Source of the DNA: Cladosporium halotolerans
Taxonomy: Eukaryota
Assembly (NCBI RefSeq): GCF_011745625.1
Contig: NW_027191464.1
Span: 62,001-126,000, forward strand
Direction of reading: 5' to 3'
DNA length: 64,000 nt
Of this stretch, positions 6,820 through 10,018 are shown piece by piece. The notes under the pieces were generated by a model. It searched no databases. It was given only the letters and a program-made list of their open reading frames with translations, and was not told where the DNA came from. The position numbers and the translations under genes were made by a program. Each line of letters begins with the position of its first letter. Position 1 is the first letter of the stretch.

Positions 6820-7642
6820 TCAAGCAGCGCCCGCCCCCTTCCTGAAACTAACCTTCTCCACCCCCACGCTCTCATTCCCCTCCGCATCCTTCTTCAACTG
6901 ATACACGTACAACACCAGCACATCGCCCTGCACATCCATGAGCACGAAGCTCGGGGTATTCGCGTCCTCCTCCTCGCTGGCGCCCAGCGTCTCGTCCATC
7001 CAGCTGTCGGCGCCCGTCGCGCTGCCCGGGTTGACGAAGAACTTGCCCTCCATCTCGTAGGCCTCGAACTTGCACGTGCCGCCCCAGCACAGCACGTCCA
7101 CGTCCATCTGCCGCGCCGCGATCAGCAGTGCGTCCGGGTCGCCCGGCGGCACGATGCTGTCGCCGTGCGTGAAGCCGATGCGCAGGCTGCCGTGCGTGAC
7201 GACTTTGGAGAGGGCGGTCGGGATCGGGAAGCTGGGCTCGCCGCTGCTGCCGCCGCTGGGTGGTTGTTGCTGGCCGTAGGGCGCGGCGGGCGGCGCGGCG
7301 CTGCTGAGCGGGATGTCGAAGTCGCCTTTGACGAGTTGGAGGTCGGGCGCGATGCCGCGCAGGAAGGAGTAGACGGAGGGCGAGGTCAGGTTGCCGAGGC
7401 AGAGGATCTGGCCGATTTTGCCGGGTGTGAGGAGCTTCTTGAACTGTTGATGAGAAATGTTAGTTGCTCGCTCGCGATCGGGGATCAATTGGGTCGTATA
7501 GGTTGTCGTACTTTTGCGGGAATGTCCTAGCCCAGCCGTCAGCCTGGCGGGTTCATGGTTGCGGCGGGTTGGGCATGGAGCTCACGATTGCGCGGTCTGG
7601 GATGAAGAGGTCGCCGAGGACCAAGACGAGTCTTGACGCCAT
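6820..7642 (-). CDS. VPS29: Retromer subunit Vps29
   Basis: MASRLVLVLGDLFIPDRAI, 15-nt micro-exon DIPAK (7526-7512), then FKKLLTPGKIGQILCLGNL...FFVNPGSATGA...PSFVLMDVQG. Confidence 0.95.
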
Positions 7643-8616
7643 GCTGGTGTGTGGTCTAGTTGCCTGGAATTGACTGCGATACTCTCCTGTCGCAACTTCC
7701 TAAACGGGAATTGAGTGAGGTTGAACGTTTACCAGCAGCCTGCTGCTGAGCTAGCATGTCCAGGCCGTGATCTGGGCGAGCTGCGGTTTGGTGGAGCAGC
7801 TGTGGAGAGGATACGCGGAAGGTGACCCGAGGCCGCTCGGCAAGCGCCAACGCCGTTGTCGGCTGGGACGTGGCGGGTCGACTCCAACGGCGGAAGTGCC
7901 CTCTCGACGGTATCGGCTATTGCGGTCGATGATGGCCATGGGGATGCGTCCCGGTTGTGAGTCGTCACCCCATCCGGTGGTAGGCGGACAAGACTCAGGT
8001 GGACCCTTCTCGGATGGAGGTGTCATGGAGCCGGGAAACACCAGACGACATCAATTGATTGAAAATTGATTAATCGATCAATCAACCTTTGCCTCTCGCA
8101 ATTGCCGACCTCGCTGGCCCGAGCCCCCTGCTTTTTGAACGGCAGTCCAGGTCATCACTCTGCTAGTTCCCGTTTCATCAACACGCCGTCGAGTCGACAG
8201 CCCGCTTCCATCAGATCCCATCGATCCCATCAAATTCCACCGTTTCCTCCCATCAGTCCGGCTTCTGCAAGGTACACGCTCACGCGCGCCAAACAAGCTC
8301 CCGATTACACACCCAGATTGTCGTCATCCTGGCTTCCACACTGCCCCGCTTTCGCTCCCTCGTCCGCTGTAGCCGATCTCTCTCGGCTGCCGTCAAGCTG
8401 GCTCCACGGGAACGCCTGAGTCTCATCTCGAGACATTTCAATACCAATGCTCACGTTCCGCTGAACACACCTTTCTCCATCGAGCGCAACAGCAGTCCCG
8501 GCGACGACATTGAGCATTCTTCCCTACCTAAAGCACAGAGTCGCCAATTCGGTACCCAAACAACCCCACCAAAGAAAGAAGAGCCCGCCCAAGAAGAGAA
8601 GAAAGAGCCAGTCAAG

Positions 8617-9768
8617 ATGTCTAGCCAGCCCCCTCACCCTACTGTGCTCATCCCGGGCCCGATCGAGTACGACGATGAGGTTCTCAAGGCCATGAGCCAC
8701 TACAGCGAGCCGCACACCGCCGTGCCCTTCGTCAAGGTCTTCGGCGAGACCCTCACCATGCTCCGCCAGCTCTTCCAGACCACCAACCCCAACAGCCAGC
8801 CTTTCGTTATCAACGGTTCTGGAACTCTTGGATGGGACCAGGTCGCTGCCAACCTGGCTGAGAGGGGCGATGACGTCCTCGTTCTTCACACGGGCTACTT
8901 CGCCGACAGCTTCGCAGACTGCTTCGAGACTTATGGCGTCAAGGCAACTCAGCTGAAGGCCCCCATTGGCGACCGTCCTCAATTGGACGAGGTTGAGAAG
9001 GCTCTCAAGGAGAAGGAATACAAGATCCTGACCGTCACGCACACCGACACCAGCACTGGCGTGCTGTCCGAGATCAAGGCCCTCAGCGAGCTCGTGCACC
9101 GCGTGTCGCCCAACACACTCGTGGTCGTCGACGGCGTCTGCTCCGTTGCCTGCGAGGAGATCCGCTTCGACGACTGGGGCATCGACGTCGTCCTCACCGC
9201 GACCCAGAAGGCCATCGGCGTGCCCGCCGGCCTCAGCATCCTGATGGCCAGCGAGCGCGCCATCGAGCGCTTCCGCGCGCGCTCCACGCCGCCGCCCAGC
9301 TACTACGGCAGCTGGAAGAACTGGCTGCCCGTCATGCAGAACTACGAGGCCAAGAAGCCGTCCTACTTCGCCACGCCGTCGCCCCAGCTCATCCACGCCC
9401 TGCACACGTCGCTCACGCAGATCCTCAGCCGGCCGTTGGAGGAGCGCTTCAGGCTGCACAAGGAGGCTAGCCAGAAGGTGAAGAAGGCCGTTGCTGAGCT
9501 CGGCCTCAAGCAGCTGCCCACAAAGCCCGAGAACGAGGCTAACGGCATGACCGCTATCTACTTGCCCGAGGGTCTGACGCCGCCCGAGATCCTGCCCAAG
9601 CTGATCGCAAAGGGCATCATCTTCGCCGGTGGTCTTCACAAGGAGATCGCTACCAAGTACATCCGTTTCGGCCACATGGGCGTCTCCGTCACCGACCCCA
9701 AGAGGGATGACCTGGACAAGGCCATCAAGGCTCTCAAGGAGGGTCTGGCTGAGGTCTCGCAGAAGTAG
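8617..9768 (+). CDS. AGX1: Alanine:glyoxylate aminotransferase (class V PLP); probable non-AUG N-terminal extension from 8341/8398 (see findings)
   Basis: LIPGPIE, GSGTLGWD, VVVDGVCSV, TATQKAIGVPAGL (PLP Lys), YFATP, IRFGHMG; intronless with strong codon bias. Confidence 0.92.
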   Translation: MSSQPPHPTVLIPGPIEYDDEVLKAMSHYSEPHTAVPFVKVFGETLTMLRQLFQTTNPNSQPFVINGSGTLGWDQVAANLAERGDDVLVLHTGYFADSFADCFETYGVKATQLKAPIGDRPQLDEVEKALKEKEYKILTVTHTDTSTGVLSEIKALSELVHRVSPNTLVVVDGVCSVACEEIRFDDWGIDVVLTATQKAIGVPAGLSILMASERAIERFRARSTPPPSYYGSWKNWLPVMQNYEAKKPSYFATPSPQLIHALHTSLTQILSRPLEERFRLHKEASQKVKKAVAELGLKQLPTKPENEANGMTAIYLPEGLTPPEILPKLIAKGIIFAGGLHKEIATKYIRFGHMGVSVTDPKRDDLDKAIKALKEGLAEVSQK

Positions 9769-10018
9769 AAGAAAAGTTAGCTTGTCTGGCTGAGGAACAT
9801 AGGAATGCATATATGATACAGAAATCCACGACTCAATGCACACAAGTTCGTTCTCATACTGTCTCTCATATCTCATTGTCTGCATATCTCCAAACGACTA
9901 ATCGAACACCCAACTCCACAAAAATCCCCAAACTCCAAAGACCTGGTATCCGTTGTCCAACCAATACCTCCCAAACTCCAGACCCTTTCTCAAATCTCCC
10001 CTCGCCCAATCTCACCCC

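Follow-up and report, generated by a model that had tools for sequence, protein, structure and literature searches.

How many forms of alanine:glyoxylate aminotransferase (AGT) does a mould make from one gene, and to which compartments are they sent? In mammals, AGT is dually targeted through alternative AUGs or transcription start sites (TSSs). The question arises for Cladosporium halotolerans from a locus at which the AGT reading frame stays open far upstream of its first AUG. An initial annotation proposed that leaky scanning from two upstream CUG codons and the AUG yields mitochondrial, peroxisomal and cytosolic isoforms. We examined this proposal in the window, the whole stretch of 64,000 nucleotides analysed here, to which all coordinates refer (Table 1). 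Conservation strongly supports the three-isoform model once its upper start is moved to another codon: at a probability of about 0.7, a leaky-scanning cascade would send the product of CUG 8329 to mitochondria, that of CUG 8398 to peroxisomes and that of AUG 8617 to the cytosol.

Table 1. Features of the AGT locus of C. halotolerans, in window coordinates
Feature	Position	Strand	Basis
Transcribed 5' leader above the first conserved CUG; 5' end is a lower bound	8188..8328	+	contigs
13-nt conserved leader motif	8265..8277	+	5/5 Cladosporium-like loci, L008, L010, L067
Start 1: strong-context CUG of a predicted mitochondrial precursor (479 aa)	8329..8331	+	conservation
Amphipathic 23-residue segment resembling a presequence (5 Arg/Lys, no Asp/Glu)	8329..8397	+	composition
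CUG, not conserved, probably no start	8341..8343	+	GCC in L002, L005, L007, L014; C at +4
Start 2: strong-context CUG of a predicted peroxisomal isoform with PTS2 (456 aa)	8398..8400	+	conservation
PTS2 nonapeptide RLSLISRHF	8413..8439	+	pattern conserved; dN/dS about 0.1
Out-of-frame 5-codon uORF, weak context (ATG 8447, C at -3)	8447..8464	+	sequence
LNTPFSIER block after the PTS2	8461..8487	+	alignment consensus
R-x-F-G-T motif, similar to mitochondrial processing sites	8542..8556	+	linker enrichment
Catalytic core (alanine:glyoxylate aminotransferase, 383 aa), opened by start 3, an AUG with A at -3	8617..9768	+	Pfam Aminotran_5 match, named homologues

The AGT gene and its open upstream frame

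The AGT gene of C. halotolerans (8617-9768) is intronless and single copy, with one match in the 27.9-Mb assembly. Its core matches Aminotran_5 (PF00266, E 2.5e-22), and homologues of the product carry the name alanine-glyoxylate transaminase at 69-88% identity; the closest named relatives are Cladosporium AGTs, with 87-88% identity across the extended protein. From these matches the product is predicted to be active as alanine:glyoxylate aminotransferase, a class V PLP enzyme. The protein ends in SQK and has no canonical PTS1, and none of 325 homologues carries a canonical PTS1 at the C-terminus. A KGL end, present in 62 of the first 207 homologues (Eurotiales among P0122-P0200), is a possible non-canonical PTS1, additional to PTS2.

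Upstream of the core, the AGT frame follows a TAG at 8164-8166 and is stop-free over 8167-9768. It contains no in-frame ATG from 8167 until 8617, as the initial annotation had stated, and no ATG occurs in any of the three frames in 8028-8446. The nonapeptide RLSLISRHF at 8413-8439, the SQK end and the contexts of CTG 8341 (TCCACA-CTG-C, C at +4), CTG 8398 (GTCAAG-CTG-G) and ATG 8617 (GTCAAG-ATG-T) were likewise found as described. Two elements had been overlooked: CTG 8329, in the AGT frame and in a better context (GTCATC-CTG-GC, A at -3 and G at +4), and the out-of-frame ATG 8447. Weak uORFs like that at 8447-8464 are also found in L005, L008 and L009 and are absent from most loci.

Open frames and short motifs may arise by chance. 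In a test with 5000 shuffles, 150 stop-free codons appeared in 0.6% of base shuffles, and codon shuffles of the 150-codon frame produced the loose PTS2 pattern in 7% and the strict pattern in 0.3%. Because shuffled sequences yield an open frame and a PTS2 at those rates, the C. halotolerans sequence is no more than suggestive by itself, and conservation carries the case.

Conservation of the extension

Three protein searches, biased toward matches that share the extension, gave the 325 homologues. Eleven lacked the anchor and 114 begin at the core Met. Of the rest, 191 extend at least 40 residues beyond the core on its N-terminal side, 164 of them with the PTS2 pattern, and 9 are intermediate. 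We take the genera of the extended homologues to represent five ascomycete classes, the Dothideomycetes, Eurotiomycetes, Lecanoromycetes, Leotiomycetes and Sordariomycetes. At the position of CTG 8398, database models vary: some have Met, others Leu or Val, and among the Aspergillus and Penicillium models several are marked 'partial' and have no Met. The expectation that standard annotation would miss the extended isoforms was thus right in part. It fails where the PTS2 start is an ATG, as in many Sordariomycetes and Pleosporales, for which the PTS2-bearing long form is already in databases; elsewhere it stands, and an AUG-only gene model would miss the CUG-started isoforms.

At the DNA level, we compared C. 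halotolerans with the best 80 of 470 confirmed metagenome stretches (81 records). Removal of 5 records without the anchor and 12 duplicates left 64 unique anchored loci, and 55 of these, C. halotolerans included, have an in-frame PTS2. The other nine comprise four truncated loci, one with the motif just below the distance cut-off, and five untruncated loci with an open extension and no PTS2 (L022, L031, L034, L038 and L040). In L031, L034 and L038 the downstream block is kept and the PTS2 has apparently decayed or lies out of frame. Excluding 5 of the 55 PTS2 loci that were short of upstream DNA and merging 5 near-duplicates gave 45 non-redundant loci. The LNTPFSIER block is missing in many Sordariomycete homologues.

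Purifying selection acts on the extension (dN/dS about 0.2). Measured against four Cladosporium-like loci, dN/dS was 0.17-0.23 for the extension as a whole, fell to about 0.1 around the PTS2 and was 0.05-0.08 for the core. In the alignment of five Cladosporium-like loci, conservation sets in at CTG 8329, and indels beyond it are multiples of three except for single-column shifts. Both the extension and its PTS2 are therefore conserved, as the three-isoform model had predicted.

Start-codon patterns

The upper start had been placed at CTG 8341. This codon is GCC in all four Cladosporium relatives and was rejected as probably not an initiation codon; the same four retain CTG 8329 with its context, and the codon with its flanks is unchanged in all five Cladosporium-like loci.

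We derived the pattern purine-NN-CTG-GC from the C. halotolerans sequence and counted it across the 45 loci (from the best 80 of 470). It occurs in frame above the PTS2, within 45 codons, 46 times in 2025 codons. It is absent from the 2025 codons of either other frame and from the 2116 linker codons; the core, with 4335 codons, has it 3 times. An unfiltered count run alongside gave a purine at -3 and a G at +4 for 47 of 78 in-frame CTGs above the PTS2 vs 20 of 141 downstream. Codon choice follows the same line: of the 60 leucines that precede alanine above the PTS2, 48 are encoded by CTG, compared with 30 of 158 other leucines there and 3 of 22 in Leu-Ala pairs of the core. The 45 loci share kinship, so p-values overstate independence.

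Nearest to the PTS2, the 45 loci (again from the best 80 of 470) have CTG as the start in 26 cases, ATG in 15, GTG in 1 and ACG in 1, with none in 2. An upper start lies 12-35 codons higher in 31 loci (CTG 21, ATG 7, TTG 2, GTG 1). Under the strict rule no upper start was found in the other 14 of 45, and the mitochondrial tier is therefore less general. L019, L020, L025, L028 and L042 keep the PTS2 CUG and have no clear upper start; several of them retain a Y-P-A motif that elsewhere lies within the presequence-like segment.

Where upstream starts are ATGs, their context is often poor: a pyrimidine stands at -3 in 21 of 33 upstream in-frame ATGs, compared with a purine at the core ATG in 45 of 45 loci. 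The two kinds of codon are exchanged even within Cladosporium, with AAG-CTG-GCT in C. halotolerans, L002 and L005 vs CCC/CGA-ATG-GCT in L007 and L014, whose ATG stands at the same offset as CTG 8398 and has a C at -3 in the alignment. These patterns suggest that selection holds both upper starts weak, either as a CUG in optimal context or as an AUG in poor context. At C. halotolerans AGT, a conserved near-cognate codon in optimal context, the absence of an upstream in-frame AUG and coding selection downstream are all present.

The predicted peroxisomal and mitochondrial forms

The PTS2 lies 5 codons from CTG 8398. RLSLISRHF has the form R-L-x5-H-L/F and matches the PTS2 consensus given in PMC3338719, which allows F, and falls outside the stricter consensus of PMC7214817, which ends in L/A. 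In most relatives the PTS2 has an HL ending. The genome encodes Pex7 (L082 vs 3w15_A, E 3e-89). Conservation across loci and the Cladosporium alignment strongly support the original assignment of the PTS2 form to CTG 8398, and a CUG-started, PTS2-bearing AGT is highly likely.

An Arg-rich, acid-free N-terminus and a processing-like motif are features of mitochondrial presequences. Between start 1 and start 2, the 31 two-start loci have 15.6% Arg and 5 Asp/Glu in 621 residues, compared with 30 in 637 residues upstream of this segment and 195 in 1480 in the linker. The R-x-F-G-T motif at 8542-8556 resembles, as we judge it, the sites cleaved by MPP. The pattern R-x-F/L-S/G-T, chosen post hoc, occurs in frame in 18 of 45 linkers and in 1 of 90 other frames, with 0.5 expected by shuffle. 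Four Trichoderma AGT models (P0292, P0294, P0307 and P0316) lack a PTS2 and have a presequence-like extension that begins with ATG. This suggests that the peroxisomal tier was lost there and that the presequence and PTS2 modules are separable.

On composition, amphipathicity and the post hoc motif, a mitochondrial form started at CUG 8329 is probable. The best-surviving alternative, which we consider unlikely, recognises two destinations only, peroxisome and cytosol, with CUG 8329 giving a longer PTS2 form or tuning the flux of ribosomes to the lower starts. The 14 loci in which start 1 was not found would fit this alternative, as would the higher dN/dS between the two starts (0.3-0.6 among Cladosporium pairs) and the position of the PTS2, still no more than about 30 residues from the start of the long form. 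It does not account for a segment rich in Arg and almost devoid of acidic residues in 31 loci, for the enrichment of the processing-like motif or for the four Trichoderma proteins with a presequence-like extension but without a PTS2. The long 479-aa form would also contain the PTS2 together with an acidic linker, features that might divert or hinder it.

The transcript

Three studies supplied contigs that span the leader ungapped: X1 at 8246-9842, X2 at 8188-8797 and X4 at 8235-8688. The runs were guessed to be RNA, none being recorded as such; X1, X4 and X12 contain RNA because spliced contigs of the neighbouring gene occur in each, and X2 has no splice joint. The upstream CUG codons sit on mature mRNA, as seen in ungapped contigs from 3 studies, two of which (X1 and X4) also hold the spliced neighbour. 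That neighbour, upstream of AGT and divergently transcribed, has a metallophosphoesterase fold (Pfam Metallophos_2) and is presumably VPS29-like. Contigs of X1, X4 and X12 include a 14-nt micro-exon in it, at about 7512-7525 on the minus strand.

The model proposed initially depends on transcription starting above 8440 and on the extension not being joined to an upstream AUG exon. The contigs begin at 8188-8246, continue unspliced through ATG 8617 and contain no such exon across the leader. The only joint in the leader contigs is a 65-nt skip (8527-8593) in X4, which we read as the divergent linker of a relative; with this one exception the contigs are unspliced across the leader, and a leader intron or upstream AUG exon is very unlikely. 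No contig covers 7763-8187, a gap that does not by itself mark a TSS. The motif at 8265-8277 resembles a splice donor (GT at 8272), yet contigs read straight through it. One carrier of the motif, L010, has no AG acceptor ahead of its PTS2 start.

Out-of-frame ATGs are scarce in the extension. Across the 45 loci, 1 was observed above the PTS2 vs 8-11 expected from composition-matched controls, and 8 vs about 23 expected between the PTS2 and the core; counts this low occurred in 0 of 300 shuffles. The context is weak in 8 of these 9 ATGs. The raw rates, 9 in 11,613 nt vs 128 in 13,005 in the core, exaggerate the deficit, which is about 3-fold to 10-fold against matched controls. Such scarcity would be expected if ribosomes had to scan through all of the extension on their way to the core AUG.

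The same three proteins might instead be selected by alternative transcription starts, which we rate as less probable still than two destinations. There is fungal precedent in Aspergillus nidulans idpA, whose isoforms are chosen in this way (PMC3798809). Shorter mRNAs are compatible with the contigs because contigs cannot define start sites, and the conserved motif at 8265-8277 also counts for this alternative. Separate transcripts, however, would need neither weak upper starts nor avoidance of out-of-frame ATGs, and both have been kept. The two mechanisms are reported to be combined in some Cryptococcus synthetases (PMC7049704) and, by analogy, leaky scanning and alternative transcription starts may act jointly on AGT.

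Least probable by a wide margin, and largely refuted, is an extension that is spliced from an upstream AUG exon or untranslated: long ATG-started N-termini in some database models (e.g. P0001, P0005 and P0017) and the donor-like GT at 8272 speak for it, but the leader contigs are unspliced, 8028-8446 has no ATG in any frame, the invented N-termini of the database models are by inspection mutually unlike above the CUG, and both the synonymous constraint on the CTG and the purifying selection would be left unaccounted for.

Proposed mechanism and its implications

From the observed sequence, transcription, selection and context pattern we infer CUG initiation, the destinations and the isoform ratios of a leaky-scanning cascade. 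A single intronless mRNA would present three in-frame starts of increasing strength, among which scanning ribosomes would choose. A minority would initiate at CUG 8329 and make the 479-aa precursor, whose first 23 residues would serve as a mitochondrial presequence and which would probably be trimmed near the R-x-F-G-T motif. Initiation at CUG 8398 would give the 456-aa form, with an N-terminal PTS2 for import into peroxisomes by Pex7. The remaining ribosomes would reach AUG 8617 and produce the 383-aa untargeted enzyme.

We lean, somewhat less firmly, toward extending this arrangement to filamentous ascomycetes in general, with a single AGT gene, a three-step start-codon cascade and three compartments, and with a PTS2 where animal AGT uses a PTS1. 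If this is true, a single shift in start-codon stringency would change how glyoxylate/glycine metabolism is divided among the three compartments, because both upper steps are weak by interchangeable means (a strong-context CUG or a weak-context AUG). The fungal PTS2 and the animal PTS1 would then be separate solutions to one targeting problem. AGT would also be a clean and widely conserved case of one mRNA serving three compartments, in which natural CUG/AUG swaps show the tuning of initiation strength. The expected site of AGT action in moulds would change, and tagging designed on an AUG-only model would be suggested to miss isoforms. The AGT leader would offer a compact reporter for effects of start-codon stringency on organelle proteomes.

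Comparison with known systems

Each element of the mechanism has precedent in other genes, and for the arrangement in fungal AGT we found no report. The literature covered, with subscription journals largely outside it, gave no account of a fungal AGT form that has a PTS2 or starts at a non-AUG codon; ribosome-profiling supplements could list one. AGT had no match in one supplement of PMC7049704, and 'AGT' does not occur in the main text of the review PMC9549241.

The closest parallel for the PTS2 tier is Ustilago maydis Pgd1, in which a conserved cryptic PTS2 in the annotated 5' UTR is translated from a near-cognate start (AGG-AUU), as shown experimentally, with about 2% initiation (PMC7214817). 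As in AGT, the PTS2 is reached from a near-cognate codon, and the AUG form of Pgd1 is cytosolic. Pgd1 differs in being another enzyme from another phylum, with two forms and, as described in that source, no mitochondrial tier, whereas the AGT case is a prediction from sequence comparison. Conserved near-cognate starts are also described for Pezizomycotina cpc-1 (PMC5487733).

For the mitochondrial tier, dual-localised fungal aminoacyl-tRNA synthetases provide the model, with leaky scanning controlled by Kozak context (PMC7049704). They share with AGT a weak upper start, a mitochondrial presequence and a strong AUG, as well as repeated swaps between weak AUGs and near-cognate codons. They have two starts for two compartments, whereas AGT would have three, the middle one serving a PTS2 tier. 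Stacking of an organelle presequence ahead of a PTS2, with two in-frame starts, is known from watermelon Hsp70 (Wimmer 1997, via the review PMC3798809). There too the start codon selects between the stacked presequence and the PTS2, but the system is that of a plant, the organelle is a plastid instead of a mitochondrion, and the review's account describes no third, cytosolic start.

Within the enzyme itself, AGT1 of Magnaporthe oryzae has been modelled as 386 aa with a C-terminal QKA as its PTS1, and the available text of PMC3338719, the one localisation study of a fungal AGT that we found, does not mention an N-terminal extension. Because that source credits QKA in the orthologue, the PTS2 is possibly not the sole peroxisomal route in the family. 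The AGT model of Pyricularia pennisetigena (P0236) has an N-terminal PTS2-like nonapeptide, as against the QKA credited in M. oryzae. Mammalian AGT1/AGXT belongs to the same enzyme family as fungal AGT and varies in its distribution between mitochondria and peroxisomes (PMC2120593), but its peroxisomal signal is a C-terminal PTS1.
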